DNA of 64,000 bases from Escherichia coli (lineage in GTDB: Bacteria; Pseudomonadota; Gammaproteobacteria; Enterobacterales; Enterobacteriaceae): NCBI RefSeq assembly GCF_016026235.1, contig NZ_CP065613.1. One strand, 5' to 3'. Below the pieces are notes generated by a model. The model was not told the DNA's origin, searched no databases, and saw only the letters and a program-made list of their open reading frames with translations. Position 1 is the first letter of the stretch. The number at the start of each line of letters is the position of its first letter. The position numbers and the translations under genes were made by a program. Shown piece by piece: positions 25,652-54,905 of the stretch.

Positions 25652-26671
25652 TTACTTCTTATGACGAATACGCGGGTTCACCACGCCGTACAGCAGATCG
25701 ACCAGCAGATTGACGAGGATAATCATCGTCGCCACCAGCAATACGCCGCCCTGCACTACCGGATAGTCGCGGCGTTGCAGTGCGTCAATCAACCAGCGCC
25801 CCAGACCGGGCCACGAGAAGATGGTTTCGGTCAGAATCGCCCCCGCCAGCAATGTTCCCACCTGGAGGCCGATAACGGTCACTACCGGCAGCATCGCGTT
25901 ACGCAGCGCATGGACGATAATCACCCGCATGCGGGTCAACCCTTTGGCGCGCGCGGTGCGGATGTAATCTTCACCCAGCACTTCCAGCATCGAGGAGCGT
26001 GTCATACGCACAATGACCGCCAGCGGAATAGTACCCAGCACAATGGCGGGCAAGATCATATGGGCGACGGCATCGATAAAGTTACCGTCTTCACCCCAGA
26101 TGGCGGTGTCGATCAGCATAAAACCGGTTAACGGATTGGAATCATCGAGGAACACCATATCGCTCACGCGACCGGAGACGGGTGTCAGGTTCCAGTGCAC
26201 CGAAACCAGCATGATCAGCATCATGCCCCACCAGAAGATAGGCATTGAATAACCTGTCAGCGCCAGGCCAACCGCTGTGTGATCGAAAATGGAACCGCGT
26301 TTAACCGCAGCCAGCACACCAACCGGAATACCGACTGCCGTAGCAAAAATCATCGCGCAGACGCCAAGTTCCAGCGTGGCCTGAAAGCGCGGCACGAACT
26401 CTTCCCATACTGGAATTCGGCTTTTCATTGAAATGCCTAGATCGCCATGCATAACGCCCCAAATGTAATGGAGATACTGCTGCCACATCGGTTTATCTAA
26501 GCCGAGTTCAGCCAGCAGCTGCGCGTGACGCTCTGGGGAGATCCCACGCTCGCCCGCCATGATCATCACCGGATCGCCCGGGATCATGTGGACAAAGGCA
26601 AATGTGAGAAGGGTAATACCGATAAACGTGGGGATGACGAGTCCCAAACGTCGGAGAATAAACTGCAACAT
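25652..26671 (-). CDS. dppB: Dipeptide ABC transporter permease
   Basis: ORF track gives 381 aa; trimmed to the MLQFILRRLG start (ATG verified at 26669-26671) gives 339 aa, matching DppB. Confidence 0.92.
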   Translation of the reverse strand: MLQFILRRLGLVIPTFIGITLLTFAFVHMIPGDPVMIMAGERGISPERHAQLLAELGLDKPMWQQYLHYIWGVMHGDLGISMKSRIPVWEEFVPRFQATLELGVCAMIFATAVGIPVGVLAAVKRGSIFDHTAVGLALTGYSMPIFWWGMMLIMLVSVHWNLTPVSGRVSDMVFLDDSNPLTGFMLIDTAIWGEDGNFIDAVAHMILPAIVLGTIPLAVIVRMTRSSMLEVLGEDYIRTARAKGLTRMRVIIVHALRNAMLPVVTVIGLQVGTLLAGAILTETIFSWPGLGRWLIDALQRRDYPVVQGGVLLVATMIILVNLLVDLLYGVVNPRIRHKK

Positions 26672-26821
26672 AACCCGGATTCTCTGTAGTGACCCGCAGC
26701 CTGGAACTGCGTGTCTGTATTGCTCACAAATCAATTCCCGCCCAGGTCGGGCAGGGAATGAAGTATTGCTGCCGGATGGCGCTGCACGCAGAGGCACAGC
26801 GCCACCGGGTATGGCTTTTAA

Positions 26822-28429
26822 TTATTCGATAGAGACGTTTTCGAAGTGATGTTTGCCTAATGGATCAACCACATAGCCTTTAACTTCTTTGCGTACCGGT
26901 TCAAACACGGTGGAGTGAGCGATGATCAGTGCCGGAGCCTGATCGTGCATCACCACCTGCGCTTGCTTGTACAGTTCAACGCGTTTGTTATGGTCGTCGG
27001 TAGCACGCGCCGGTTGAATCAGATCTTCAAACGGTTTGTAGCACCATTTTGAGTAGTTGGAGCCTTGTTCAGAGGCGGCGCAGCTGAACAGAGTGGCGAA
27101 GAAGTTATCCGGGTCCCCGTTATCGCCAGTCCAGCCCATCATTACCGTCTGGTGCTCGCCATCTTTCGCACGCTTGAGGTACTCACCCCATTCGTAGGTG
27201 ACAATTTTGGCCTGCACGCCGACTTTCGCCCAGTCAGCCTGAATCATCTCCGCCATGCGGCGAGCGTTCGGGTTATACGGACGTTGTACCGGCATCGCCC
27301 ACAGGTCGATGGAGAAACCTTTTTCCAGACCCGCTTCTTTCAGCAAGGCTTTCGCTTTTTCAGGATCGTAGGTGTAGTCCTGAACGTCGTCGTTATAGCC
27401 CCACATGGTTGGCGGGATCAGGTTTTTCGCTGATACGCCCGCGCCCTGATAAACCGCTTTGATGATCGCGTCTTTGTTCACCGCGTAGGTCAGAGCCTGG
27501 CGAACTTTCACGTCATCGAGTGGTTTTTTCTGCACGTTATACGAGAGATAACCGACGTTCAGCCCCGGCATTTCCATCAGATTGATGGATTTATCCTGCT
27601 TCATGCGAGCAATATCTGCCGGGTTCGGGTACGGCATCACCTGGCATTCATTCTTCTGCAATTTAGCGTAACGCACGGAAGCGTCAGGGGTAATAGAGAA
27701 GACCAGCGTATCGATCTGCGGTTTGGTGCCCCAGTAGCCATCAAACGCTTTGTAGCGGATACGGGAATCTTTTTGATACTGCTGTAACTGGAACGGACCG
27801 GTACCGATTGGGTTGAGGTCCAGTTTTTCCGGTGTACCAGCTTTCATCATCGCGTCAGCATATTCTTTTGACAGAATAGAGGCGAAGTCCATTGCCAGAT
27901 CAGCGAGGAACGGCGCTTCCGGTCGAGTCAGCACAAACTGAACGGTGTTGTCGTCCACCTTTTTCACTTCGCTGATCAGCTCTGGCAAGCCCATGCCTTC
28001 GAAGTATTCGTAGCTGCCGCCAGATACTTTATGGTACGGGTTTTGCGCGTTTTTCTGACGATCAAACGAGAACACCACGTCATCGGCGTTCATTTCGCGC
28101 GTCGGTTTGAATTCTTTATTGTCGTGCCACTTCACACCTTTACGCAGATGGAAGGTGTAGGTTTTACCGTCTTCGCTGACTTCCCACTTTTCAGCGAGGC
28201 CCGGGATCACTTCAGTGGTGCCGATTTTAAATTCAACCAGGCGGTTATAAAGCGGTACGGAAGAGGCGTCATAGGTGGTACCGGAGGTAAACAGCTGCGG
28301 GTTAAACCCTTCCGGAGATCCTTCTGAGCAATAAACCAGAGTTTTAGCCTGAACACTTGCTGCGACGGTCATAGCCACCAGGCTGAGACCAAGCTTCAGC
28401 ATCCCTGACTTTTTCAAGGAAATACGCAT
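26822..28429 (-). CDS. dppA: Periplasmic dipeptide-binding protein
   Basis: 535-aa ORF with a signal peptide (MRISLKKSGMLKLGLSLVAMTVAASVQA); matches DppA. Confidence 0.94.
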   Translation of the reverse strand: MRISLKKSGMLKLGLSLVAMTVAASVQAKTLVYCSEGSPEGFNPQLFTSGTTYDASSVPLYNRLVEFKIGTTEVIPGLAEKWEVSEDGKTYTFHLRKGVKWHDNKEFKPTREMNADDVVFSFDRQKNAQNPYHKVSGGSYEYFEGMGLPELISEVKKVDDNTVQFVLTRPEAPFLADLAMDFASILSKEYADAMMKAGTPEKLDLNPIGTGPFQLQQYQKDSRIRYKAFDGYWGTKPQIDTLVFSITPDASVRYAKLQKNECQVMPYPNPADIARMKQDKSINLMEMPGLNVGYLSYNVQKKPLDDVKVRQALTYAVNKDAIIKAVYQGAGVSAKNLIPPTMWGYNDDVQDYTYDPEKAKALLKEAGLEKGFSIDLWAMPVQRPYNPNARRMAEMIQADWAKVGVQAKIVTYEWGEYLKRAKDGEHQTVMMGWTGDNGDPDNFFATLFSCAASEQGSNYSKWCYKPFEDLIQPARATDDHNKRVELYKQAQVVMHDQAPALIIAHSTVFEPVRKEVKGYVVDPLGKHHFENVSIE

Positions 28430-29047
28430 TATTCTGCTCCAATTGTGATGTTTGTTGTTTTAACCCTTTGCAGTGGGTTGTCGCTGCCTGACCTTTTTTG
28501 TTTTTTGCCCGGTCGGGTCAACGTTATGAGGTGGGGATGCCGTACTAATTAACATCAGTGTAACAGTGCGGATCCTCCATAAAATGCCCCTCGTGACCTA
28601 CAATCTGTCAACAGAATGTGAAAACGTCAATACAGCCAACCGGGATTTACACCAACGGTGAGAATCCACAAACAAAGATTAAAAAAACTTCAAACAGCTA
28701 TTTGCAGCAGAGAAATTTGTGCTACTCCAACATGACCAGAACAATCAGCTTAATATTTAGCAACATTTGGTGATTAAGTTTTATGCATTTAATGAAAAAA
28801 ATCTGAGGAAAAGGTGGATATCTGAGCGATTAATACCATGAACGCTAAAACGCACAGCGGAAAATGCCAGCGCCAGCCATAAGTAACGCAAAAAAAGATT
28901 TAAGCAAATATAAAAAAAGACAATGGTTTCTGTCACAAATCCGTTAATGGATAGTGAGATATGGGGCGCAAATTTGGCAGGGAAATGTGTGGTGTGTAGG
29001 TCGAATAAGGCGGTCGCGCCGCATCCGACAATAAGTGCGGTGCCGTT

Positions 29048-29083
29048 GCCTGATGCGACGCTGACGCGTCTTATCAGGCCTAC
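29048..29083. repeat. REP (repetitive extragenic palindrome) element
   Basis: GCCTGATGCGACGCTGACGCGTCTTATCAGGCCTAC, a canonical enterobacterial REP palindrome. Confidence 0.7.
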
Positions 29084-29140
29084 GTCGAGTCGAACCTCCC
29101 TGCCCCCGGAGGTTCTCATCCTCATGGGTTGCAGAAAGCA

Positions 29141-29168
29141 AAAAACCAGCCCGTAGGCTGGTTTTTCT
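29141..29168 (-). terminator. Rho-independent terminator downstream of tRNA-Pro
   Basis: On the minus strand: hairpin CCAGCC-TACG-GGCTGG followed by TTTTT, immediately 3' of the tRNA. Confidence 0.65.
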
Positions 29169-29172
29169 AAAT

Positions 29173-29249
<77 letters not shown>

Positions 29250-29340
29250 AATGCGGGGCGCATCTTACTGCGCAGATACGCCCTCGTCAATCCCTTAATA
29301 GCAAAATGCCTTTTGATCGGCGAGAAAGTCAGCAGGCCTC

Positions 29341-31032
29341 TTAGTTAGCCGCTGCCTCTTTTGTCTGCGGGATGTGACACCAGTTGTTGTTTTCGTTAAT
29401 TCCACCATCCGGTGAAGTATAGCCAAGACAACCCATGATGGTGTCGTACAGCTCTACGTGACGGCGTGGCACTTTCATGTCGGCTGCTTTTTTCAGCTGC
29501 GCAAACGCCTGCGCATTGACCGGATTTTCCAGATATTTATCTGACATCCAGACCATCATCGGTACGCGGAACTGCTCCGGCGGTGCCAGTTCACGCGGCG
29601 TGCCGTGCAGGTGCTCGCGTTCATTAATTGACTCGCCGTGGTCAGCTGCGTAGAACACAATCGCTTTCTTATCGCGAACCTGATCAATCACACTGGAGAT
29701 AAAGTGATCCACATAGGTCACCGAGTTGTCATAGGAGTTGATCATCTGCGCTTTGGTACATCCGCTATCAACACCAATACATTCCGGCTTCCACTGCGCA
29801 AAGCTGCGCGGGTAACGCTGGGTGTAGTTAAAGTGCGAACCTTTGGTATGCAGAATGATCAGATGCTTACCATCCGGGTTGCGCCCCAGCGGTTGCTGCA
29901 TTTCGTCTACCAGCAACATATCATCTACCGGCTTGCCACGGTTACGTGGCTCCGCACCAATCTGTTCACGGTAAGCAATATTGTCCGCCATCGTATTGCT
30001 GTAGAACCACATTTCGCTCTGCATAGCGTAGAGGTCAGAACTGAATCCTAACTGCTTCAGTACCGCGAAAATGTTCTGTTCTTTTAATGTGCGCTGCGGA
30101 TTATCTTCCGCGCCCCCCTGACGTACAAACATGCAACGCAGAGAGAGTTTGGTTGCGGTATCACAGGAGTAACCACGGAACGCCGCCAGATTTTTCTCCT
30201 GGGCCAGCTTCGGCGTGGTATTACGCTCATAGCCGAAAATGCCCATATGGTCCCAACGCGTGGTTTCACCGATGATAAACACGACATAAGTGTCATTAAC
30301 ATTTTGCGGTGCCTGATAAGTGAATTTCTTCGCCGGGTTAAGCAATGAATTATTATCGGAAGATTCATCGACCCGCGCCCAGGCGTACAGCCCCAACGCA
30401 GAAAGCCAGTTTGATGGCAGATAAGAGTTCGCTACGACACCGCCATAACTCGGCAAATCAACGCCGGTCGCCCTCTCCACTTTCTTCTGCTGGATATCCA
30501 GCAAACGAATCGGTGCCCAAACCATAATTCCCGCCAGTACGACGACCGCCAGGCTGCGAATACGCTGCCCTGGGGTTCGCAGTTGTCGGAGCAAGGTGTA
30601 GCGACAGCGGTTATTCCAGATAAGGATAAGAGGCAATGCGCTAACGGCGATTAACCAGAGAATAAAGTTCAGACCAACAACTTCTTTTGACAGGTCGATA
30701 TCGGTGGTCATGACGGAAGCGATGATGCCATAACCAATGACCACATTAAGGAAGGTCATGTAATAGCTGGCACCTGCGGAAAAGAGCACAACCAGCGATG
30801 CCAGAATACGCCAGCTGCGGCGGCCAAACAGCGAAAGAAGACGTAGTAAAAAGAAGGTCACCAGTACGGTGGCGGCCAGTTCAACAACAGCAGAAATGCC
30901 TTTCCAGACGGTAAAATCGTGCGCATAGCTGCCGAAGCGGCGGTAAAAAACCGCGCCATTCATAAAAAGGCCAATATAGATTGCAAGCAAAAAGCTCAGC
31001 TTCTGCTGTGTAATCGATTTGATGTATCTCAT
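29341..31032 (-). CDS. eptB: Kdo2-lipid A phosphoethanolamine transferase
   Basis: ORF track gives 574 aa; trimmed to the MRYIKSITQQ start (ATG verified at 31030-31032) gives 563 aa, matching EptB (YhjW). N-terminal TM helices and a sulfatase-like C-terminal domain. Confidence 0.9.
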   Translation of the reverse strand: MRYIKSITQQKLSFLLAIYIGLFMNGAVFYRRFGSYAHDFTVWKGISAVVELAATVLVTFFLLRLLSLFGRRSWRILASLVVLFSAGASYYMTFLNVVIGYGIIASVMTTDIDLSKEVVGLNFILWLIAVSALPLILIWNNRCRYTLLRQLRTPGQRIRSLAVVVLAGIMVWAPIRLLDIQQKKVERATGVDLPSYGGVVANSYLPSNWLSALGLYAWARVDESSDNNSLLNPAKKFTYQAPQNVNDTYVVFIIGETTRWDHMGIFGYERNTTPKLAQEKNLAAFRGYSCDTATKLSLRCMFVRQGGAEDNPQRTLKEQNIFAVLKQLGFSSDLYAMQSEMWFYSNTMADNIAYREQIGAEPRNRGKPVDDMLLVDEMQQPLGRNPDGKHLIILHTKGSHFNYTQRYPRSFAQWKPECIGVDSGCTKAQMINSYDNSVTYVDHFISSVIDQVRDKKAIVFYAADHGESINEREHLHGTPRELAPPEQFRVPMMVWMSDKYLENPVNAQAFAQLKKAADMKVPRRHVELYDTIMGCLGYTSPDGGINENNNWCHIPQTKEAAAN

Positions 31033-31286
31033 GCAAACAAACCCTGGACAAACAGGTGATAACACCCTGCTTAGCGGCTTTTCAGGCCCAGCAGGGGAAA
31101 AGTGCGGAGGTAGTCAGATAAGTAAAATCTACACGCGCGAATAAGTAGACCACAGCAAAGGGAAAAAGTGTGGGGAAAGAGTGTGCATGAAGCACAAATT
31201 TACAAAAGTGCAAGTCCGGAATAGACCATTTTAACGGATTAACGACTATTCAGAGATAGGTTGGGCCAGGATGCTGGCCCAGTAGC

Positions 31287-31817
31287 TTACTCATAGGTGA
31301 TGGAAAAATTGACAAGGGCATTCGCTGTGCCACCAGTGGCCTGAGTGTTGACGACCACATAGCTCGCCTTGTAGTGAAGCGACGTGGTTTCGCCATCAAT
31401 CGCCCATTCAATCGGCGTTCCGCCGGAGCCTTTGGGAACTTGCTGCGTTCCTTTATCGTCCTCTATCTTCAACGCAACACCCGTTGCGCCACCAGCCTCA
31501 AGGGCGAACATGGAATCATCATCGCTGTCCGGCTGACTGTCCATCTCAACGGTCGCTTTGGAGATCCCATCGCAGTCTTTGAGTTCAAGAGTGAAATCTT
31601 TCTTACTCAACACCGTACCGACTGTGGCAGGTTTTGGCAGCATCATAGTGCCCATATCAACTTCGAGATCGCTTTTTTCAAGCTCACAGGCTTTCGTGGT
31701 GATGGTAATCGAGAAATGAATATCTCCTGCCGGGCCAAGATCCGTTGCCGCAATCACCCCGCAGGCAACCAGACTCAAACTGGCGATGCCAGTATGCAGC
31801 AATCGTTTGAATTTCAT
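31287..31817 (-). CDS. lpfE: Fimbrial minor subunit (LpfE-like), chaperone-usher pilus
   Basis: 176-aa ORF with a signal peptide and a C-terminal fimbrial-subunit-like motif (ALVNFSITYE); last gene of a five-gene fimbrial cluster whose sizes and order match lpfABCDE. Confidence 0.7.
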   Translation of the reverse strand: MKFKRLLHTGIASLSLVACGVIAATDLGPAGDIHFSITITTKACELEKSDLEVDMGTMMLPKPATVGTVLSKKDFTLELKDCDGISKATVEMDSQPDSDDDSMFALEAGGATGVALKIEDDKGTQQVPKGSGGTPIEWAIDGETTSLHYKASYVVVNTQATGGTANALVNFSITYE

Positions 31818-31821
31818 GGCC

Positions 31822-32901
31822 TCACTCCATTTCCAGATATATGGTCGTTACGCCTTCAAATGTCCCGGCTTTCGGTGCTTTACCCGTCGTGCTGATCGGT
31901 AAGGCCAGCAGTCGAATCGCGGCATTGCGGTGAGTCGCCGAATCCAGGCTGCTCAAATCTAATAACGTAGTGCTGTTTGCATCATTTGGTACCAGAATTT
32001 TGCCGCTGGAATCTTTCACCAGCACGCCAATATCGGGGTTGCCCATATCCACTGCCCTGGGGTCGTCAGCATTGGTTGCTCCCTCAAGGCGCAACGCAAC
32101 CTTGATACCATCAGAGATATTGTTGCAATCGAAGCTGAGGTTAATTTCTTGCTCTGTCGCACCTTCAGGCATTTGCCCTTGCCTGTTTTTAAACGCTGAG
32201 GAGGGAAATTCACCAAATGGCACATCCAGAACCGTGCCGGGTTTAATTTCGCAATCCTGGGTAATGGTGACGCGGCCCTGAATAGATACGGAAGATATGG
32301 GTATTGTTCCGTAATCTTTATTTGTTTTGGAGGCATACAGTTCGGCAATTAACGTGGGGGGAATGACTGAATCGCCGATAAAGGGTTTAGTAATCAAGAA
32401 AGAAAGTAATCCTCCTCCGCCCATATACGGAGTAGTGATGACTTTATTACAGCCCGTTACCTGAAGCGCCTGTTGACCTTTAAAGGGGACAAAACCATAT
32501 TGCCCCGAACTTACCTGAATTTTTGTAGATACAGACAGTTCCTCAGTTAAGTAATAATACTTAAAACCACCGATATCCTTGGTTATTGTTGCTATGCCGC
32601 TAACCCCTTGTATTAGAGTATCTTTTTCAGTTTTATAAGAATCAGGGCATTCACAAATTAGCGATACCTTTTGTCCATTCGACCAGTTCATTACATCCGT
32701 TAAAACCGTACCTGCGACGTTTTTACTTGCATCGGGAACACCAACATCCACATCGACATTATAGTGATAAGTCGTGCCATCCGCGGGGGTACACGGCCCC
32801 CAGGCATCTCCGGCAAATGCCTTACCAGAAAATCCGAATACGCATCCTAATAAAGATAATGCTATTGCCACATTCATTTCGCTCTCCTTGCTTACTGGCA
32901 A
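31822..32901 (-). CDS. lpfD: Fimbrial adhesin / tip subunit (LpfD-like)
   Basis: 359-aa ORF with a signal peptide (the true start may be the internal MNVAIALSLLG) and a C-terminal subunit motif (TTIYLEME). Confidence 0.65.
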   Translation of the reverse strand: MPVSKESEMNVAIALSLLGCVFGFSGKAFAGDAWGPCTPADGTTYHYNVDVDVGVPDASKNVAGTVLTDVMNWSNGQKVSLICECPDSYKTEKDTLIQGVSGIATITKDIGGFKYYYLTEELSVSTKIQVSSGQYGFVPFKGQQALQVTGCNKVITTPYMGGGGLLSFLITKPFIGDSVIPPTLIAELYASKTNKDYGTIPISSVSIQGRVTITQDCEIKPGTVLDVPFGEFPSSAFKNRQGQMPEGATEQEINLSFDCNNISDGIKVALRLEGATNADDPRAVDMGNPDIGVLVKDSSGKILVPNDANSTTLLDLSSLDSATHRNAAIRLLALPISTTGKAPKAGTFEGVTTIYLEME

Positions 32902-35465
32902 TTGGCCGAAACAGGAATAATTCCGCCCTGTTTTAATTCCAGGGATAATTTATAAGGCGCCACGCATTGCTGCGACGCGTCATTACCCCATTTAATCAGT
33001 ACCCGCCCTTCCTCTGGCATCCCGCTAATATAGAGCTGCCCTTCTTCACCGACGATGCTGCTCACCTCATTTTGTTTATCGGTGATTAAGGTTGCTGTTG
33101 CCCCGAAAGGCACCGGACTGCCCGCGGAACGGAGCAGCGTCATTAATACGCGGTAACCAACACGGGTATCAAAACGCGCTCTGACAATCGCTCCACGCGT
33201 CGGCACCACTTTCTGGAATGCATTTTCAACGTCAACATCGTCACCCAACGAATCGCTACGCAGTGAGATTTCGTTTTCACGATAAGGCGTGGCGTAAGGC
33301 ACAACCGCGTTACCCATCCAGTCGACCTGCACACCGCCGTTATTCACCACGCGGGCATTGCGCGCGCCGGGTACGGAGATGAGCGTCATGGTTTCGCCTA
33401 GCGGCTGGGAAAGCGTGACGCCTTCGCTGTGAACGATCACGCCGCCGCGAACGCTGTAGTTGAGCTGCCGGTAATCTTTCCCGTAGCTATAGCCTACGTT
33501 GACATTACCGGACCCACCCTGATAGCCAACGTTAGCATTACCGCTATTACCCACGCCGTTGCTGGCGTAACCTTCCTGAACACTGTAGCTCAGGTTGCGA
33601 TCCTCAAGCAGCGTGCCGCTGACCCCAACCTGTTGATTTGTGCGACCATCCTGGTCGGTCGTCACGCGATAGTTACTCCAGGCCCGGCCCAGCGGAACGG
33701 AAATATTGAAAGACCACAAACGATCGCTATCATCCCATTCCGGGCTTTTATTCCAGCTATACGCAATACTGTAACTGACCTTGCCAATACGTCCGTTATA
33801 ACCCGCCGATATCGTGTTCTGTTTACCTGCGTCGTTCCAGTAATCCTGCTGCGTTAAATTTAAATAAACAGAGCCATACGCCCCTAATTGCTGCGTCAGG
33901 TTACCCTGTATTTCGCTGCGCTTGTGATAACGGTTATAGTCGCTGTCGGCATCACTGCGCACATCGGTGGCTTCCTGGAAGGTATAGAAACCGCTGGTAG
34001 AGTATCGATAGCCCGCGAGGCGGAAATCGGTGCCGCTTTCGAAGCTCTTGGAATATAAGAAACGATAAGATTGTCCCTGGCTATCGCGATCGTTATTCAG
34101 TTCGCTTTTCGCCTGCGTAACATCGATGGAAATCGCCCCGATATAACCAAAGTTCTTCCCTATACCTAACGCAAACGCATTGTAATTATTAGAGATTAAT
34201 GCACCGCCGTAGGCGGTCATCCCCCACGGTAAACCATAAATCAGATCAAGCTGCCCGAAACGCGGCGAGCCGCTGTCATAATTCCCGGCCTGATATTCAC
34301 CCGCGGCAAAGCTATATTTGAGATGGCCTTCACGCTGGAAAATAGGCACCGATGAGAACGGTTGAATAAAGCGTTGTTCGCTGCCATCCGCTTCTTTAAT
34401 AATGACCGTGAGGTCACCGCTGTTTGCGGTAGGGTAAAGATCGTTTATTTCAAAGGCTCCGGGCTGCACATAGGTGCGATAAATAACGTAGCCGTTTTGT
34501 TCAACACTGACTTCAGCATTACTTTTGGCGATCCCACGAACGATGGGCGCAAAGCCTCGCTGGCTGTCGGGCAGCATCTCTTCATCGGAGGCTAACATCG
34601 CGCCACGCATCTGAACGCTGTCAAAAATATCCCCCGCGGTCGCCGTATCTCCCATTGTTAATTGCGCTTTGAAAGGCACGATGGCACGGCTAAGCGACGT
34701 ACCGATATTATCCCACTGCGCTTTGCAGCCGGAATGGCTCCAGGTACTGTAATTACGTAACCGCCACGCGCCAAGGTTCAGGCCGCTGCGTAAGTTGAGG
34801 TAGTAGCTGTCGCTCTTTAGCGTATCGTTGCCATCATCATGATGAACGGTGCCATTATCATCGACATAACTGCTGGAAGAACCCGAGGAGTCATATTCAC
34901 TGTTGCTCCCGCTAAAACTGTAATCCAGCAATAATGCCGGGATACCTTCGTCCCATAAAGATTCCGGCACCGTGCCGCGCGCCACCTGGTGCATCGCAGC
35001 CTGAGGGAAACTTAATACCAGCTTTTGTTCACTGAAGTCGAAATGGCTTGAGGCCTGGGGAATGATTTCGTCAAACGGCACGCAGGCTTCGGCAGGCACC
35101 AGATTGAGGGCCGGAAAGCTTTCAACGCGCACGCCCATCTCTGCCAGTTGCGTCCGGCTAAGGCAAGGCACAAGGGATTCCCCCATCGCTTTGCGCTGTG
35201 CTTCTGTGGCCTCTTTAAATTCCAGTGTGCGGGTTTCCATTCTCTGTTCATTGACGTAAACAGAGACACGATAGATGCCGGGTAACTGCTGTTCCTGGCC
35301 TTTTTCGAACATCGTTAAATCGACATGCTGGCCCACACCCTGAACGTCCTCCAGGAATTTGGGGTTAAACTTTCCGGCATGTGCAGAAAACGTGCTGGCA
35401 ACAGCAACCGCCACCACAGAGATAGAAAAGGAAGAAAAAGTACGTGAAACGGTCTTCCGTGACAT
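32892..35465 (-). CDS. lpfC: Outer-membrane fimbrial usher (LpfC-like), intact
   Basis: 857-aa uninterrupted ORF with a signal-peptide-like N-terminus and a usher-like central region. Confidence 0.8.
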   Translation of the reverse strand: MSRKTVSRTFSSFSISVVAVAVASTFSAHAGKFNPKFLEDVQGVGQHVDLTMFEKGQEQQLPGIYRVSVYVNEQRMETRTLEFKEATEAQRKAMGESLVPCLSRTQLAEMGVRVESFPALNLVPAEACVPFDEIIPQASSHFDFSEQKLVLSFPQAAMHQVARGTVPESLWDEGIPALLLDYSFSGSNSEYDSSGSSSSYVDDNGTVHHDDGNDTLKSDSYYLNLRSGLNLGAWRLRNYSTWSHSGCKAQWDNIGTSLSRAIVPFKAQLTMGDTATAGDIFDSVQMRGAMLASDEEMLPDSQRGFAPIVRGIAKSNAEVSVEQNGYVIYRTYVQPGAFEINDLYPTANSGDLTVIIKEADGSEQRFIQPFSSVPIFQREGHLKYSFAAGEYQAGNYDSGSPRFGQLDLIYGLPWGMTAYGGALISNNYNAFALGIGKNFGYIGAISIDVTQAKSELNNDRDSQGQSYRFLYSKSFESGTDFRLAGYRYSTSGFYTFQEATDVRSDADSDYNRYHKRSEIQGNLTQQLGAYGSVYLNLTQQDYWNDAGKQNTISAGYNGRIGKVSYSIAYSWNKSPEWDDSDRLWSFNISVPLGRAWSNYRVTTDQDGRTNQQVGVSGTLLEDRNLSYSVQEGYASNGVGNSGNANVGYQGGSGNVNVGYSYGKDYRQLNYSVRGGVIVHSEGVTLSQPLGETMTLISVPGARNARVVNNGGVQVDWMGNAVVPYATPYRENEISLRSDSLGDDVDVENAFQKVVPTRGAIVRARFDTRVGYRVLMTLLRSAGSPVPFGATATLITDKQNEVSSIVGEEGQLYISGMPEEGRVLIKWGNDASQQCVAPYKLSLELKQGGIIPVSANCQ

Positions 35466-35493
35466 TGAGCAATTTCTCCTGAAAAGGTATTAA

Positions 35494-36192
35494 TCAATCA
35501 ACATTTTTAGTCATCATTTCCGCTGACGATCCAAAGTCATTGATAGTGTTATATTTAATCTTCGAAACGCTACCTGCCCCAGCGGGTAATGTAATATTTA
35601 ATGACCCTTTTGCGGGTACCATGCCGGCTTTTTCAATTTCTTTGTCATTCGCAAAAAATTGATTAAAGGTAATATTAAAAACGGTGGGGTTATCGACACG
35701 GATCTGATTACCGCTACGCGTAAATCGCAGTTCGTTTGGCGCGGTTTTTACATCACCCTGTAACCCTGCCGGGCGATAAAACAGTTTGATGCGGGTGCGA
35801 ACAGCAATCTGTAATACATTTTTGTTTTCGCTGTCGTCACTTTTAGACGGAATGGCTTTCACATTAACCCAGTAGACCGATTCGCGATCCTGCGGCAGGC
35901 CAGGGGTGGTATTTACAATACGCAATATATTGTTTTTTCCAGGATCGAGCCTGAACAACGGCGGGGTAATTATAAACGGTGTTTTTTTGCTGCCCGCGGC
36001 ATCATCCACCCAGGACTGGATCAGAAACTCTTCCGTCTTACTTTTATTCTGTACGGTCAGCGAGGCTTCTTTCTTACTGCCATCATAAATCACACGGGTA
36101 GCACTAAGCCCAACGCCCCCCGCCAGAACTGACTGGGAGAGGAACAGAGACAGAGCCAACGCAACAAATTTACTTTTCATCATTCGATCCAT
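35494..36192 (-). CDS. lpfB: Periplasmic fimbrial chaperone (PapD-like; LpfB-like)
   Basis: 232-aa ORF with a signal peptide; size and position typical of a PapD-family chaperone. Confidence 0.8.
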   Translation of the reverse strand: MDRMMKSKFVALALSLFLSQSVLAGGVGLSATRVIYDGSKKEASLTVQNKSKTEEFLIQSWVDDAAGSKKTPFIITPPLFRLDPGKNNILRIVNTTPGLPQDRESVYWVNVKAIPSKSDDSENKNVLQIAVRTRIKLFYRPAGLQGDVKTAPNELRFTRSGNQIRVDNPTVFNITFNQFFANDKEIEKAGMVPAKGSLNITLPAGAGSVSKIKYNTINDFGSSAEMMTKNVD

Positions 36193-36244
36193 GAATTTTG
36201 ACGACTAATGGCGGCAATTACGCCGCCATGGGTAAAACAGACGA

Positions 36245-36781
36245 TTACTCGTAAGACAGGTTGAAATCGACCTGCGCATTGCCGTAACCGGTCGTTACCG
36301 TTGCCAGAGTTGAAACGTAGTTGGCGGTAAAGTAGAGAACCGTCTGGCCTTTACTCAGATCAACACTTGCTTTACCACCGTTAAGAGCGACCAGGGTGTT
36401 GCTGTTATCATAAATACCGATACCAACACCTTTCGCCGCACCGGCTTCAGTACTAACAGAAATCAGATCAGATTGATCTGCATCACCGACACCGCTAAAG
36501 CTCACATTGGCTTTTTTCATCGTAGTGGTATCGCAGTCTTCCAGTTTAATTTCGAAGGGTTTTGCCGGGGATTTATCACCAACCGCAGCAAATACAGATT
36601 TTTGTACCTGACCCAACACAACTTCCTGATTCTGAGAGTCAACGGACAGTACGCAAGGTGAATCCACGATCTCGCCTGTAAATTTAACCGTGCCGTCACC
36701 AGACTCTGCTGCGAATACAGTGCCAGAAGTTAACGCCAGTGCGGTTAAGGCAAAAACGACCTTTTTCATGAAAAACTCCAT
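36245..36781 (-). CDS. lpfA: Major fimbrial subunit (LpfA-like)
   Basis: 178-aa ORF with a signal peptide (MKKVVFALTALALTSGTVFA), a conserved Cys pair and a C-terminal GYGNAQVDFNLSYE motif; strongly resembles the Salmonella/E. coli LpfA I recall. Confidence 0.8.
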   Translation of the reverse strand: MEFFMKKVVFALTALALTSGTVFAAESGDGTVKFTGEIVDSPCVLSVDSQNQEVVLGQVQKSVFAAVGDKSPAKPFEIKLEDCDTTTMKKANVSFSGVGDADQSDLISVSTEAGAAKGVGIGIYDNSNTLVALNGGKASVDLSKGQTVLYFTANYVSTLATVTTGYGNAQVDFNLSYE

Positions 36782-37082
36782 TTAAAAAATTACATTAAAA
36801 AGAAAATCTTGATGTATCAAAATCGACAACTTTGAAGGAAGGATTATACAATTAAATACGAATAATAAAATTATACGAATAATATATTAATAGCACATCC
36901 AATTTTAAATCTTAAAAAAAATCATTGCGTTACATTTTTACATAAAAAGCTATCGTTTATTTTTAGGAATAAATAAATATAAAATATCAATTAAACAAAA
37001 CAAAAACATTCACCACACAAATAATAAGATAAAATATTTTCATTTTTATTCTTTAAAATGTAATAAAAAAGGAGGATTTCCT
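36782..37082 (-). promoter_or_regulatory. Extremely AT-rich upstream region of the lpf operon (probable promoter / nucleoid-protein-bound region)
   Basis: About 300 bp that are overwhelmingly A/T, directly upstream of lpfA. Specific promoter elements not resolved. Confidence 0.4.
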
Positions 37083-38376
37083 CTGAGGGATCCCCAGAAA
37101 ATTTAGTAAACCATTATCATATTGGTATACCGTTGCTGTAGAACTTTCAGCCCTGCGTCAAGTGACAGTGTGTTTAGTATGAGTGGAGAATGTCGAATCA
37201 CATTCTCCGCCAGTTTTAATAACGAGATGACTCGCCTGTGCTTCACTGTATTTGCCTGATATTTATGATGTATCCCTTTGTTTTCCAGGCTGAAACCGCT
37301 TAACCACATAATGATACTGGCTAATGTTGCGATCAGACTCAATACCGTGACCCGCCCGGATGAATGACTGGCACCAAACCGTAGTCCAAATCCCCAGCGA
37401 GGATTTTTTTCATCCCTGAAATTTTGCTCAATTTGCATTCTACGGCTGTATAATTTCATTACCTGTTTTGGCGAGAACTCAGTACTGTTTGTGAAAATAA
37501 ACCATGGTGATTTCCCGGCAGTACGAGCTTTAGCCGTCACCGATGGTCTGGTTGCTCTTTCCTTCGAGCGTTTAAATCTACGACCTTTAGGCTTACTTTT
37601 ATAAAGATAAAAATGCCCTTCATGTTGTGCATTTTTATCTCGACCCAGCAGGCCTTCACCTAAATAAATTGCTGTCGTTGATGCTTTTGTGCCTGAGTCC
37701 GACACCTTTTCCCAGCCATTACCAACATTGTAATAATGATTGCCCAGTACCCGGCAAATATAGGTCCAGCCACGGGAGCGGAGCTGTTGGAACCATCGCC
37801 CCTGAAAACCGGCATCTGTAATAACAATGACATCAGTCCCGGGGGAAAAGCACTCAGCAAGCGATTCCAGAAAACGCTCATGTACATCTGCATTCGCTGT
37901 CTGTGATGATGGAACGACACAACTCATCAACGGTAAAGAACGCCCGTCACATGCCAGGCTTGCCCGCAAAAGCTGAAAACGAGAGGCATGATAAGCACTC
38001 CAGTCAATGAGTATCACAACACGAGACATTCCCCGCGTAATCTTTTGGGTAATTCGCTGAAAAATGGTGGAAACCTCATTTTGCAAATGTCGATTCCCCA
38101 ACAGTCGATCCACCCGCTTTATTTTGTTTTTAACTGATGCCGTACCGGTTAAATGACGCCCGATACTGGTAAGTGTGAGGGAAGCGCCATTTATTACAGC
38201 ATTAGTTGCGTCAATCAGTGATTTTTGACGGTAAAGATGCAAAGGGGCCAGTATGTTGTTAAGGAAATTTTGGCATAATGAACGTGCAGGCATAGTGGTG
38301 ATCTCCTTGAAATTGTTAGCACAATCAATTAGATCACATCTCACTATGCCTGTCTTGTTTTCTGGGGATTCCTCAG
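37083..38376 (-). mobile_element. IS10-like insertion sequence (IS4 family), about 1.29 kb, with imperfect terminal inverted repeats and flanking direct repeats
   Basis: Left end CTGAGGGATCCCCAGAAAA (37083-) and right end, reverse-complemented, CTGAGGAATCCCCAGAAAA resemble the IS10 termini I recall (CTGAxGAATCCCC). Flanked by AGGATTTCCT at 37073-37082 and 38377-38386, so the boundary is uncertain by 1 bp. Confidence 0.8.
37103..38293 (-). CDS. IS4-family (IS10-like) DDE transposase
   Basis: ORF track gives 443 aa from 38434; the likely real start is the ATG at 38291-38293, inside the IS (MPARSLCQNF..., 396 aa). Motifs shared with IS10 transposase: IKRVDRLLGNRHL, VITDAGF, YSRRMQIEQNFRD. Confidence 0.8.
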   Translation of the reverse strand: MPARSLCQNFLNNILAPLHLYRQKSLIDATNAVINGASLTLTSIGRHLTGTASVKNKIKRVDRLLGNRHLQNEVSTIFQRITQKITRGMSRVVILIDWSAYHASRFQLLRASLACDGRSLPLMSCVVPSSQTANADVHERFLESLAECFSPGTDVIVITDAGFQGRWFQQLRSRGWTYICRVLGNHYYNVGNGWEKVSDSGTKASTTAIYLGEGLLGRDKNAQHEGHFYLYKSKPKGRRFKRSKERATRPSVTAKARTAGKSPWFIFTNSTEFSPKQVMKLYSRRMQIEQNFRDEKNPRWGFGLRFGASHSSGRVTVLSLIATLASIIMWLSGFSLENKGIHHKYQANTVKHRRVISLLKLAENVIRHSPLILNTLSLDAGLKVLQQRYTNMIMVY

Positions 38377-38417
38377 AGGATTTCCTCCCCCTTTCGTTCA
38401 AAATCTGTAGTTTCTGG

Positions 38418-39620
38418 CTAAATATGCGCCTCACGCAATACTTTCTGCTCTGGCTGACGAATCGTCGTAGAAAGCGCCAATGACAGAATCAGCAGAGCAA
38501 AGATGACGTAGAACGTCACATAGAAGCCGCCAAACAGTGAGGCAATAATCGAACCACAAATGCTACCGATACCGAAACCGAGGTAAATCACACCGTAGTT
38601 TTTCGCCAGGTTATTGAGGCCGAAGAACTCACTGACCAGTGACGGAAAGACGGTAATAGTGCCGCCAAAGTTAAATGCCACGCAGGCAATCGCTGCAAAG
38701 AACATCACTGCATTCAATGGTGCAAACAGCAGGGCCGCCATACCCACCAGCGAAATTACCTGACCAATGGTGATAACACGGATACGGGCGATTTTGTCAG
38801 ACAGAATGCCCAGCACCAGACGACCTGAAAGGTTAGCAATAGAAATAACCGTTACTGCGTTGGCTGCGGAAATTGCATCAAGATGCGCCAGGCTCTGAGC
38901 AATATCTTTCGCCACACCAATCACATACAGACCGCTCATGCAGGCAGTAAGGAACATCACCGCTAACATCCAGTACTGCGGTTTACGCATCGACTCTGCC
39001 AGCGTGTAATCTTTCTCCACTACGCCATTGCTGGTTTTCACTTCCTGTTTTGGTGCGTCTTTCATTAACGTTGCGCCGAAAACAATCATCACCAGCGCAA
39101 TCGCTCCCCAAATCACAAAGGTTTTTTCCAGACCGACCGTTTCCAGCAGCTGCGTGTCGATAAATTTGAAACCCAGGCTACCCAGACCATAAGAACCGAT
39201 AGCGAACGCGGAGATCAGACCTTTACGCTCCGGGAACCACTTCACGCAGTTAGAGAGCGTCAGCAGGTAACCCGCGCCATCCGCCAGACCGACCAGCACA
39301 CCGGCGCTTAACCACAGCATCATCAGGTTGTCAGAATGCGCTGTCAGGAAGAACCCTAATCCCAGCAAAATGCCGGAAGCGATGGTGACGCGTTTAACAC
39401 CAAAACGTTCCTGCAATTTGCCCGCAACAGAAGACGAAATTGCCAGCCCCAGACTTAACAAGCCGAAAGAGAAAGCGACCTGGCTTACCGGCGCATCCAG
39501 CTTGGCGGAAAGCGCGCCGTTAAACAGGCTCCAGGTATAAACCGACCCCAGCGCAAACTGGGTAATGATAGTACCGATGAGTGTCAGCCAGCGGGTACGC
39601 TGATAATTTGAAGGTGTCAT
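38418..39620 (-). CDS. yhjX: MFS-family transporter (putative oxalate/formate antiporter-like)
   Basis: ORF track gives 415 aa; trimmed to the MTPSNYQRTRW start (ATG verified at 39618-39620). Multi-pass MFS-like protein matching YhjX. C-terminus not checked against a reference. Confidence 0.85.
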   Translation of the reverse strand: MTPSNYQRTRWLTLIGTIITQFALGSVYTWSLFNGALSAKLDAPVSQVAFSFGLLSLGLAISSSVAGKLQERFGVKRVTIASGILLGLGFFLTAHSDNLMMLWLSAGVLVGLADGAGYLLTLSNCVKWFPERKGLISAFAIGSYGLGSLGFKFIDTQLLETVGLEKTFVIWGAIALVMIVFGATLMKDAPKQEVKTSNGVVEKDYTLAESMRKPQYWMLAVMFLTACMSGLYVIGVAKDIAQSLAHLDAISAANAVTVISIANLSGRLVLGILSDKIARIRVITIGQVISLVGMAALLFAPLNAVMFFAAIACVAFNFGGTITVFPSLVSEFFGLNNLAKNYGVIYLGFGIGSICGSIIASLFGGFYVTFYVIFALLILSLALSTTIRQPEQKVLREAHI

Positions 39621-53576: not shown

Positions 53577-53952
53577 AGTATTCCTTTCATTCCTGAATGT
53601 GTAAGAGCTTTATGTTGCTCATACCGAGCGAAACAAACGCATTTGACCAAACAAGCAGACAAAAAAGGCGATGGGGTAGATCACCATTTCATAAGCATTG
53701 ATAGGTGCATTTAAAACACCGATAAACAAGAGACCGATAGTGATTAACGCAACTAACTGGCAAATATGGGTAAAAAAATTATCCAGTTGCCCGAGTTTTT
53801 CTGCGCGAAGATATGCATAGTTGCCAAAAGTTGCTGTCATTAACACGCCAAGAAAATAGCCTTTTCCACTCAACAATGGGCATGAGATCCATAGCCCGGT
53901 AATGCTGCCAACTTACTGATTTAGTGTATGATGGTGATTTTAAGGTGCTTGC

Positions 53953-54228
53953 GTGGCTTCCATTTCCATCAGATGTCCTTCCTGCTCCGCTACTGAAGGC
54001 GTGGTGCGTAACGGCAAAAGCACTGCCGGACATCAGCGCTATCTCTGCTCTCATTGCCGTAAAACATGGCAACTACAGTTCACTTACACCGCCTCTCAGC
54101 CCGGTACGCACCAGAAAATCATTGATATGGCCATGAATGGCGTCGGATGTCGCGCCAGTGCACGCATTATGGGCGTTGGCCTCAACACGGTTTTACGTCA
54201 CTTAAAAAACTCAGGCCGCAGTCGGTAA
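53953..54228 (+). CDS. insA: IS1 InsA (transposition inhibitor / N-terminal part of the InsAB' transposase)
   Basis: 91-aa [46 protein letters not shown]..., matching IS1 InsA. Confidence 0.92.
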
Positions 54229-54650
54229 CCTCGCGCATACAACCGGGCAGTGATGTGATTGTCTGCGCTGAAATGGACGAACAGTGGGGCTACGTCGGTG
54301 CTAAATCACGTCAGCGCTGGCTGTTTTACGCGTATGACAGGATACGGAGGACGGTTGTGGCGCACGTCTTCGGTGAACGCACTCTGGCCACACTGGAGCG
54401 TCTTCTGAGCCTGCTGTCGGCCTTTGAGGTCGTGGTATGGATGACGGATGGCTGGCCGCTGTATGAATCACGCCTGAAGGGAAAGCTGCACGTTATCAGC
54501 AAGCGTTACACTCAGCGCATTGAGCGACATAATCTGAATCTGAGACAACATCTGGCAAGGCTGGGACGGAAGTCACTGTCGTTCTCAAAATCGGTGGAGC
54601 TGCATGACAAGGTCATCGGGCATTATCTGAACATAAAACACTATCAGTAA
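54147..54650 (+). CDS. insB: IS1 InsB frame (expressed as the InsAB' transposase by -1 frameshift)
   Basis: 167-aa ORF in the -1 frame relative to insA, containing the IS1 transposase catalytic region; coordinates are the ORF-track frame, not a verified initiation site. Confidence 0.85.
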
Positions 54651-54905
54651 GTTGGAGTCATTACCCCATAGCCCAACCAGATAAACCAGCGCCCCGACAA
54701 CAAATAATAGTTTTGCCACAGTCTTTGAGGTTTTCATAACGATCTCCATATCTACCAGCGATACATTACGAGTAACCAACGAAAGACAAAACTGAAAAAT
54801 GCCATTAACAAATGATTTTCAGAATAAATTCATACTAAATATTAATTAATTACTGAGATATATAGATGTGAATTATCCCCCACCCGGTCAGGCAGGGGAT
54901 AACGT

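Follow-up and report, generated by a model that had tools for sequence, protein, structure and literature searches.

The founding long polar fimbriae are those of Salmonella enterica Typhimurium, which are encoded by the five genes lpfABCDE and regulated by phase variation. The lpf1 operon of E. coli is a long-studied colonisation factor and serves to type EHEC and EPEC strains. In the O157:H7 strains EDL933 and Sakai it constitutes O-island 141 (lpfABCC'DE) at the eptB/yhjW-yhjX site, and in EDL933 the annotated lpfC is a pseudogene interrupted by a TAG stop. The published O157 name lpfABCC'DE handles the operon as fimbrial despite the split usher. The fibre of the O157:H7 orthologue helps the bacteria to adhere in the intestine and to interact with Peyer's patches and M cells (PMC4636846, PMC5357955, PMC8565820). 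Other E. coli carry divergent lpf operons between eptB and yhjX (e.g. WP3-W18-CRE-03; E2348/69 type). These form a separate deep lineage, with lpfAB at 60–80% identity found in approximately 780 complete genomes.

We identified a series of five ORFs on the minus strand (31287-36781) of the window, a 64,000-nucleotide stretch of E. coli DNA, encoding in order a major fimbrial subunit, a PapD-type chaperone, an outer-membrane usher, a two-domain adhesin and a minor subunit. We are highly confident that this is an intact E. coli lpf1 operon (lpfA1-lpfB-lpfC-lpfD-lpfE, O-island 141 type) for a type-1-like chaperone-usher fimbria, lying in an island of approximately 5.9 kb between eptB and yhjX. 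The genes present, their order and integrity, their orthology and their location are all observed here, and the fibre itself is predicted from the genes. The five products match Pfam families with E-values from 5e-19 to 1.5e-215 and the NCBIfam Lpf models with E-values from 2e-87 to 0, values that chance does not explain. An Lpf model is the top NCBIfam match for each of the five, and four score above the curated cut-offs. RefSeq labels on 99.9%-identical DNA read lpfA1, lpfB, lpfC, fimbrial protein and lpfE. The operon, annotated as lpfA1/B/C/E, is carried by about 421 of 5,426 complete RefSeq E. coli genomes. It is an already known feature, and the NCBI pipeline annotates exactly this operon. 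A preliminary description of the locus had recognized five co-directional fimbrial genes of the Lpf family at the lpf1 site of O157:H7. All of this is borne out, although LpfD falls below its own cut-off and the description had missed that the genes lie on the minus strand.

The gene lengths given there (178, 232, 857, 359 and 176 aa) are correct as longest ORFs, but the likely products are 174, 228, 857, 351 and 176 aa. The major subunit gene lpfA1 (36245-36769, minus strand) has a longest ORF extending to 36781. However, the start at 36769 is the RefSeq start in near-identical loci, and a GGAG lies 8–9 nt upstream of it. LpfA1 matches Pfam Fimbrial (2e-30) and NCBIfam LpfA (339.9 compared with a cut-off of 221), is identical to RefSeq WP_021557309.1 ('LpfA1') and shares 99.4% identity with the EDL933 protein. 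The chaperone gene lpfB (35494-36180, minus strand; longest ORF 35494-36192) likewise takes the RefSeq start of near-identical loci, at 36180. Its product is identical to WP_000836896.1, scores 436.9 against NCBIfam LpfB (cut-off 360) and contains both domains of a periplasmic PapD-type chaperone: PapD_N (positions 1-125 of 126, 2e-46) and PapD_C (1-60 of 63, 6e-07). The minor subunit gene lpfE (31287-31817, minus strand) encodes a protein matching Pfam Fimbrial (5e-19) and NCBIfam LpfE (291.3, cut-off 169). LpfA and LpfE each consist of one Fimbrial domain.

The usher gene lpfC (32892-35465, minus strand) is a single uninterrupted ORF of 857 codons with zero internal stops, as had been described. 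LpfC scores 1716 against its NCBIfam model (cut-off 1271), and the PapC_N, Usher (1-549 of 549) and PapC_C matches in Pfam are all full-length. Codon 368 (34362-34364) is CAA, encoding glutamine, whereas EDL933 has TAG. However, the uninterrupted usher is not a distinguishing trait because this is the ordinary state outside O157:H7; the usher is intact in every non-O157 locus sampled.

The adhesin gene lpfD (31822-32877, minus strand) has a longest ORF of 31822-32901, and the RefSeq start in near-identical loci is 32877. The protein consists of an N-terminal receptor-binding domain and a C-terminal pilin domain. The Pfam Fimbrial domain is confined to the C-terminal ~150 residues (approximately 198-349 of 351), and the full-length sequence matches the fimbrial protein structure PDB 5AFO (residues 26-350, E = 3e-66), which we take to be the LpfD structure of AIEC LF82. 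Against the NCBIfam LpfD equivalog the score is 329.8, which is under the cut-off of 412 and approximately three times that of the next family. The gene is named 'fimbrial protein' by RefSeq in every lpf1 locus examined.

Compared with EDL933 lpf1, the operon shows 93.4% DNA identity over 100% of its 5,495 bp, and the two share the chromosomal site and the gene order. Amino-acid identities are 99.4% (A), 95.6% (B), 98.2% (C), 88.3% (D) and 93.8% (E). The lower value for LpfD includes a 300-nt block (32416-32715, residues ~55-155 of the receptor-binding domain) in which identity is 71%. Within the operon, it is the receptor-binding domain that is mosaic and diverges fast. Consequently the binding specificity is not transferable from O157:H7 or Salmonella, and carriers may differ in their host or tissue tropism. 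The divergent lpf operons are more distant, with approximately 75% DNA identity and amino-acid identities of 89% (A), 77% (B), 75% (C), 51% (D) and 57% (E), and the only divergent locus examined (L005) has the same insertion site and gene order. The Salmonella operon, which also has the same order, was compared through the NCBIfam models only (PRK152xx, which we assume to be derived from the Salmonella proteins); LpfA, LpfB, LpfC and LpfE match over their full length and above the cut-offs, and LpfD falls under.

The domain architecture of the five products is common to all type-1-like (gamma-1) fimbrial operons, and the Fim, Bcf and Stg models give significant though far weaker matches. The cluster might on this basis belong to another fimbrial family (type 1/Fim, Stg, Bcf, or the lpf2/OI-154 locus) and be Lpf-like in gene sizes only. 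However, the Lpf models score two- to three-fold or more above the next family for every gene (LpfC 1716 compared with 903; LpfA 340 compared with 113), and these scores, together with the EDL933 identity and the shared site, refute an assignment that we consider to have virtually no chance of being correct. A best match to a different family, which had been named as an outcome that would overturn the Lpf identification, was not found for any of the genes. Type 1 fimbriae (fimAICDFGH), whose models are the second-best matches, share the domain set and the mechanism of assembly inferred here. However, gene order and number differ, the operon described here is without the fimB/fimE invertible switch, and LpfD is not FimH (90.6 bits compared with a cut-off of 472). 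No evidence contradicting the lpf1 identification arose.

The island is flanked by core genes. Downstream of the operon lies eptB (29341-31032, minus strand; NCBIfam Kdo2-lipid A phosphoethanolamine transferase, score 1154), the product of which is 99.8% identical to EDL933 EptB. Upstream lies an intact yhjX (38418-39620, minus strand; 400 aa; NCBIfam oxalate/formate antiporter-family MFS), the product of which is identical to that of strain EC2641. The final codons of yhjX mark the island junction. In K-12 the eptB-yhjX gap is an empty site of 323 bp, which agrees with its earlier description as short. Homology to K-12 stops at 31215 and restarts at 38424, and the insert therefore spans 31216-38423. 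These 7,208 bp comprise a 5,904-bp lpf island and 1,304 bp corresponding to an insertion sequence with one copy of its target duplication. The suggested comparison of composition shows that the G+C content of the operon (49.4%) is below that of the rest of the window (51.5%), and that the GC3 of lpfA, lpfB and lpfD (0.44–0.46) is below that of the flanking genes (0.58–0.61). A foreign origin is weakly supported by these values.

The eptB-yhjX gap holds more than the five genes that had been said to occupy it. A 1,292-bp ISEc60 element of the IS4 family (37084-38375, minus strand), which the preliminary description overlooked, lies 314 bp upstream of lpfA and separates it from yhjX. No such element is present upstream of lpf1 in EDL933. 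The boundaries were defined by comparison with the IS-free EC2641 locus and by the 18-bp terminal inverted repeats, and four other ISEc60 copies have the same length. The transposase gene (37103-38293) has the same direction as yhjX and lpf; its product matches the NCBIfam IS4 transposase model (1e-107) and is named 'IS4-like element ISEc60 family transposase' by RefSeq. The element is bordered by direct repeats of 12 bp, one on the lpf side (37072-37083, GAGGATTTCCTC on the plus strand) and one on the yhjX side (38376-38387), and EC2641 has a single copy. Together these repeats represent the halves into which the intrinsic terminator hairpin of yhjX has been split. The intact hairpin in EC2641 (AAAGGGGGAGGAAAUCCUCCUUUUUU) folds at -14.6 kcal/mol, whereas neither half in the window folds better than shuffled sequence. 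All five ISEc60 copies compared lie in GGrGAnnTCyCC-like palindromes, and the element is found in the terminator because the hairpin matches its preferred palindromic 12-bp target.

The ISEc60 insertion is a lineage-specific secondary event that disrupted neither the lpf genes nor the native region controlling them. The lpfA-ISEc60-yhjX arrangement is absent from all complete RefSeq genomes. In the nearest genome, FDAARGOS_943, which has ISEc60 at 36 places, the lpfA-IS-slyX and IS-yhjX junctions are approximately 250 kb apart, which we read as an inversion between IS copies. The draft assemblies GCA_001907395.1 and SRR1118464 share the allele, and their contigs either extend into the element or are broken there.

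The element could have rewired expression of the operon through loss of the yhjX terminator and perhaps also through an outward promoter of its own. Read-through from yhjX or the transposase gene into lpfABCDE would place the fimbrial genes under a new signal and allow partial escape from H-NS. In K-12, yhjX is strongly inducible and pyruvate-responsive. The common direction of yhjX, the transposase gene and lpf fits such read-through, as does the split terminator. The stretch from yhjX to lpfA yielded no strong minus-strand terminator, and one weak promoter-like match (37142-37113, 9 of 12) is directed at lpfA. However, promoter-like matches are not in excess in the region (14 compared with 11.5 ± 3.5 in shuffled sequences), the target preference of the element accounts by itself for the insertion site, and transcripts would still have to cross an untranslated, AT-rich and H-NS-bound leader of approximately 330 nt. 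We consider rewiring improbable. If it has taken place, an IS would have altered the regulation of an adhesin in an E. coli lineage whose IS elements are expanding. The insertion in any case provides a natural experiment on whether loss of the yhjX terminator changes lpf expression.

The native regulatory region of lpf1 (36770-37083, minus strand) is fully retained. Its 314 bp have a G+C content of only 19.7%. Aligned with seven other lpf1 loci, the region is near-identical to six, EDL933 among the strains that share it, and has one substitution unique to the window. It contains weak sigma-70-like matches at 36909-36879 and a T8 tract at 36914-36921, the length of which ranges between T6 and T9 in different strains. 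We also considered phase variation of the Dam/GATC or invertible-switch type; no GATC site was found when the 314-bp sequence was read by eye.

Intact reading frames alone do not prove that lpf is expressed. Operons of the lpf type are typically silent in culture. The operon described here may be intact on paper but cryptic, with fimbriae never made, either through permanent silencing by H-NS where an anti-silencer such as Ler is lacking or through insulation by the IS. The low G+C content upstream of lpfA is typical of H-NS targets, and in O157:H7 H-NS acts on the region upstream of lpf1 to repress the operon tightly, with expression depending on Ler as anti-silencer (PMC8565820, PMC5357955). 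The closest lineage is IS-rich, and the operon has decayed in close relatives, with a frameshift in lpfD in EC2641 and IS600 within the operon in two O145:H28 strains. However, all five ORFs in the window are full length against the family profiles and identical or nearly so in L011 and L012, two independent assemblies, the upstream control region is whole, and an operon that is silent in culture is not necessarily silent in the gut. We therefore regard a permanently cryptic operon as possible but rather unlikely.

Two hairpins may influence the mRNA. The 64-nt spacer between lpfA and lpfB contains a GC-rich 9-bp stem-loop (36208-36229, minus strand), and the fold of 36175-36255 on this strand has an energy of -23.1 kcal/mol (z = -2.5). 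By analogy with other chaperone-usher operons, we infer that it is a putative intercistronic mRNA stabiliser or attenuator favouring excess major subunit. A second hairpin, an 8-bp GC-rich stem without a U-run (31262-31281, minus strand; -15.5 kcal/mol, z = -2.8), directly follows the lpfE stop codon and resembles in alignment the hairpin following yhjX in K-12. A consensus terminator scan missed both the post-lpfE hairpin and the split yhjX hairpin, which emerged through alignment and folding.

An intact lpf1 operon of this kind is expected to assemble its fibre as established chaperone-usher systems do. As published for the orthologue in O157:H7, transcription would begin within the 314-bp region of ~20% G+C upstream of lpfA and stay silenced by H-NS until Ler or another anti-silencer lifts the repression. 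The stem-loop following lpfA probably raises the ratio of LpfA to the accessory proteins. All Lpf subunits would be exported by Sec, and LpfB would then cap each of them in the periplasm via donor-strand complementation. The two-domain adhesin LpfD would be the first to engage the usher LpfC, followed by LpfE, the minor subunit and a probable adaptor, and finally by many copies of LpfA. Donor-strand exchange would polymerise the subunits into a surface fibre tipped by LpfD.

The lpfA1 allele was examined in silico with the primers lpfA1-3-F and lpfA1-3-R of the Torres 2009 typing scheme, for which a 244-bp product is expected. The primers yield a 244-bp amplicon, the reverse primer matching exactly and the forward primer with one central mismatch. 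Alleles 1-3, 1-4 and 1-5 are all candidates. The lpfA1-1 primers (PMC3417533) have no match in 13 loci, the divergent locus L005 included. An O157-type lpfA1 together with an intact usher is found outside the O157/O55:H7 clade, which is relevant to how far lpfA1-3 can serve as a marker specific for EHEC1. The EDL933 LpfA1 protein itself is also present in one ETEC isolate.

The analysis confirms a fimbrial operon at 31287-36781 and supports its interpretation as lpf1 (long polar fimbriae 1; lpfABCDE), a feature that is already known and routinely annotated. The ORF list of the window contains five closely packed ORFs running in one direction, as claimed in the preliminary description, all on the minus strand: lpfA (36245-36781), lpfB (35494-36192), lpfC (32892-35465), lpfD (31822-32901) and lpfE (31287-31817). 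The sizes given there (178, 232, 857, 359 and 176 aa) were found, but they are lengths of the longest ORFs; the RefSeq annotation of 99.9%-identical DNA uses internal starts, with products of 174, 228, 857, 351 and 176 aa. The ATG of lpfA at 36769 has a correctly spaced GGAG 5' of it. The operon does lie between eptB (29341-31032, minus strand), its downstream neighbor, and yhjX (38418-39620, minus strand) upstream, but the five genes share this gap with an insertion sequence, ISEc60, located between lpfA and yhjX.

All five genes are full length compared with family profiles. Pfam identifies one Fimbrial domain each in LpfA and LpfE, PapD_N and PapD_C in LpfB, and full-length PapC_N, Usher and PapC_C domains in LpfC. 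The Fimbrial domain of LpfD is confined to the C-terminal ~150 residues, which is the signature of a two-domain adhesin. The best NCBIfam match is an Lpf model for every product and none falls in another fimbrial family. LpfA (score 339.9, curated cut-off 221), LpfB (436.9, 360), LpfC (1716, 1271) and LpfE (291.3, 169) exceed their cut-offs. LpfD scores 329.8, below its cut-off of 412, but this remains its best match, with the runner-up family StgD at 102. Residues 26-350 of LpfD align with the solved structure 5AFO (E = 3e-66), which is named only 'FIMBRIAE' in the PDB record and which we take to be LpfD of adherent-invasive E. coli.

The operon is found at a coverage of at least 80% in 421 of 5,426 complete RefSeq E. 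coli genomes (megablast), chromosomal in every case, and is annotated there as lpfA1, lpfB, lpfC, 'fimbrial protein' and lpfE. Over the full 5,495 bp, DNA identity is 93.4% to O157:H7 strains, among them EDL933 and 86-24, and amino-acid identity to EDL933 is 99.4% for LpfA, 95.6% for LpfB, 98.2% for LpfC, 88.3% for LpfD and 93.8% for LpfE. The O157:H7 island (OI-141; PMC5357955) had been correctly assigned to this site, as the EDL933 operon also lies between eptB and yhjX. Another fimbrial family has next to no chance of being correct, refuted by the NCBIfam matches, the identity to EDL933 and the shared site. The lpfA1-3 typing primers of Torres 2009, as reproduced in PMC3417533, yield in silico a product of the expected 244 bp. 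Only the forward primer departs from the window, at one central position; the reverse primer is exact, as are both primers in EDL933.

The eptB–yhjX spacing in K-12 MG1655 is 323 bp, in agreement with the short gap first described. K-12 homology stops at 31215 and restarts at 38424, within the last yhjX codons, where the island junction falls. The yhjX product has 402 aa ending in AHGSL in K-12 compared with 400 aa ending in AHI in the window. By folding, a GC hairpin was identified 3' of lpfE (GGGCCAGcatcCTGGCCC; 31262-31281); it resembles the yhjX terminator hairpin of K-12 (GGGCCAattaaCTGGCCC; approximately 6690-6710 of the K-12 locus), and the motif AGCTACTGGGC occurs just before both. A 9-bp GC stem-loop lies between cistrons 3' of lpfA (36208-36229).

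The EDL933 annotation marks lpfC, which contains an internal stop, as a pseudogene, and the title of a cited publication gives the O157 operon as lpfABCC'DE. Codon 368 is TAG in EDL933 and CAA (Gln; 34362-34364) in the window, where the usher is, as first described, one uninterrupted ORF of 857 aa. An intact usher is not special. The gene is also annotated as intact in O55:H7 DEC5D, O145 RM9873-C1, ETEC L7_E1373, Z1322HEC0005, 33F4, EC2641, FDAARGOS_943 and the divergent WP3-W18-CRE-03, and within the loci sampled only O157:H7 has the stop codon. Decay of other kinds includes a frameshifted lpfD in EC2641 and IS600 within the operon in two O145:H28 strains. The LpfA1 accession of ETEC L7_E1373 is that of EDL933 (WP_000758167.1), so the O157-type major subunit is not confined to the EHEC1 clade, which bears on lpfA1-3-based typing. 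That an lpfA1 of O157 type occurs beside an intact usher in strains outside the O157 clade is a small addition.

The chaperone-usher gene set is complete in the window. Based on established chaperone-usher biology, Sec export would be followed by donor-strand complementation by LpfB and ordered assembly at LpfC, in which LpfD would enter first to form the tip, LpfE would serve as adaptor and LpfA would build the shaft. PMC8565820 and PMC5357955 describe repression of the O157:H7 orthologue by H-NS and de-repression by Ler, and the orthologue is associated with colonisation and with M cell and Peyer's patch interaction (PMC4636846, PMC5357955). That the operon is intact but cryptic is possible, though we consider it rather unlikely.

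The complete 314-bp region between the insertion sequence and the lpfA start (19.7% G+C) is near-identical in six of the seven other lpf1 strains aligned, with Z1322HEC0005 much more divergent, and has one substitution unique to the window. A T tract approximately 150 bp upstream of the lpfA start (36914-36921) varies in length: T8 in the window and EC2641, T7 in O157:H7, O55:H7 and 33F4, T6 in O145 and T9 in ETEC L7. This variation may be simple polymorphism or reflect a slippage-prone regulatory spacer.

Sliding-window identity along the operon is mosaic, with some blocks 100% identical to ETEC L7 (31816-33900) or to Z1322HEC0005 (35416-36300). The 300 nt at 32416-32715, encoding LpfD residues ~55-155 inside the receptor-binding domain, are 71-72% identical to O157:H7, O55:H7 and 33F4 and 91-94% identical to O145, ETEC L7 and Z1322. 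These blocks point to recombination among lpf1 alleles and a fast-diverging adhesin domain; the mosaic domain is a further small addition. WP3-W18-CRE-03, the only such genome examined, carries a more distant lpf lineage at the identical site (~75% DNA identity; LpfD 51% and LpfE 57% identical to the window proteins). Some lpfAB homologue occurs in 1,209 of the 5,426 genomes (sensitive blastn), ~780 of them at 60-80% identity, including E2348/69. G+C content is 49.4% in the operon and 51.5% in the remainder of the window. GC3 is 0.44-0.46 in lpfA, lpfB and lpfD compared with 0.58-0.61 in eptB, yhjX and dppA, and is near core values in lpfC and lpfE; this composition fits an island that is old and partly ameliorated.

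ISEc60 (IS4 family, 1,292 bp), which the preliminary description does not mention, occupies 37084-38375; its transposase is encoded on the minus strand at 37103-38293 (NCBIfam 1e-107; RefSeq name ISEc60). Comparison with the IS-free strain EC2641 sets its bounds and a 12-bp target duplication (37072-37083 and 38376-38387). The target is a hairpin and T-run directly 3' of the yhjX stop (AAAGGGGGAGGAAAUCCUCCUUUUUU), folding in EC2641 at -14.6 kcal/mol (z = -2.4), and we read it as the intrinsic terminator of yhjX. After insertion neither half (38376-38417, 37050-37083) folds better than shuffled sequence. Because ISEc60 split this likely terminator, yhjX in the window has no recognisable terminator ahead of the element, also a small addition. 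With yhjX, the transposase gene and lpf co-directional, loss of the terminator makes IS-mediated read-through or rewiring of lpf plausible, and a weak promoter-like match is its one further support. Such matches are, however, no commoner there than in shuffled sequence, and we regard this reading as quite improbable.

The four ISEc60 copies examined from elsewhere, all in different genomes from the window's, have the same length of 1,292 bp; clean 12-bp duplications flank the window copy and three of these, the fourth (locus L016) having none. All five copies lie in an imperfect palindrome of the form GGrGAnnTCyCC, which resembles the ends of ISEc60. These sites suggest that ISEc60 is highly selective for its target, with a possible preference for terminator-like hairpins, and target preference alone would explain the position of the window copy. 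Among complete genomes only FDAARGOS_943, the one nearest to the window and with 36 places matching ISEc60, shares the lpfA-IS junction. There slyX replaces yhjX on the far side of the element and the IS-yhjX junction is ~250 kb away, implying a probable inversion between IS copies. Over 25777-38380, the stretch compared, dppA is intact in the window and split by IS1A in FDAARGOS_943. The drafts GCA_001907395.1 and SRR1118464 have the window's allele, their contigs entering or ending at the element.

An IS1 copy (53898-54666) between yiaA and xylB, 91% identical to the FDAARGOS_943 IS1A, appears to truncate yiaB at its 5' end; an ORF of 85 aa (53619-53876) remains. Between dppA and eptB are ordinary core features, Rfam naRNA4/CssrE (28999-29080, plus strand; 66.9 bits) and a tRNA (29176-29249, minus strand), which is proK tRNA-Pro in the RefSeq annotation of matching loci.
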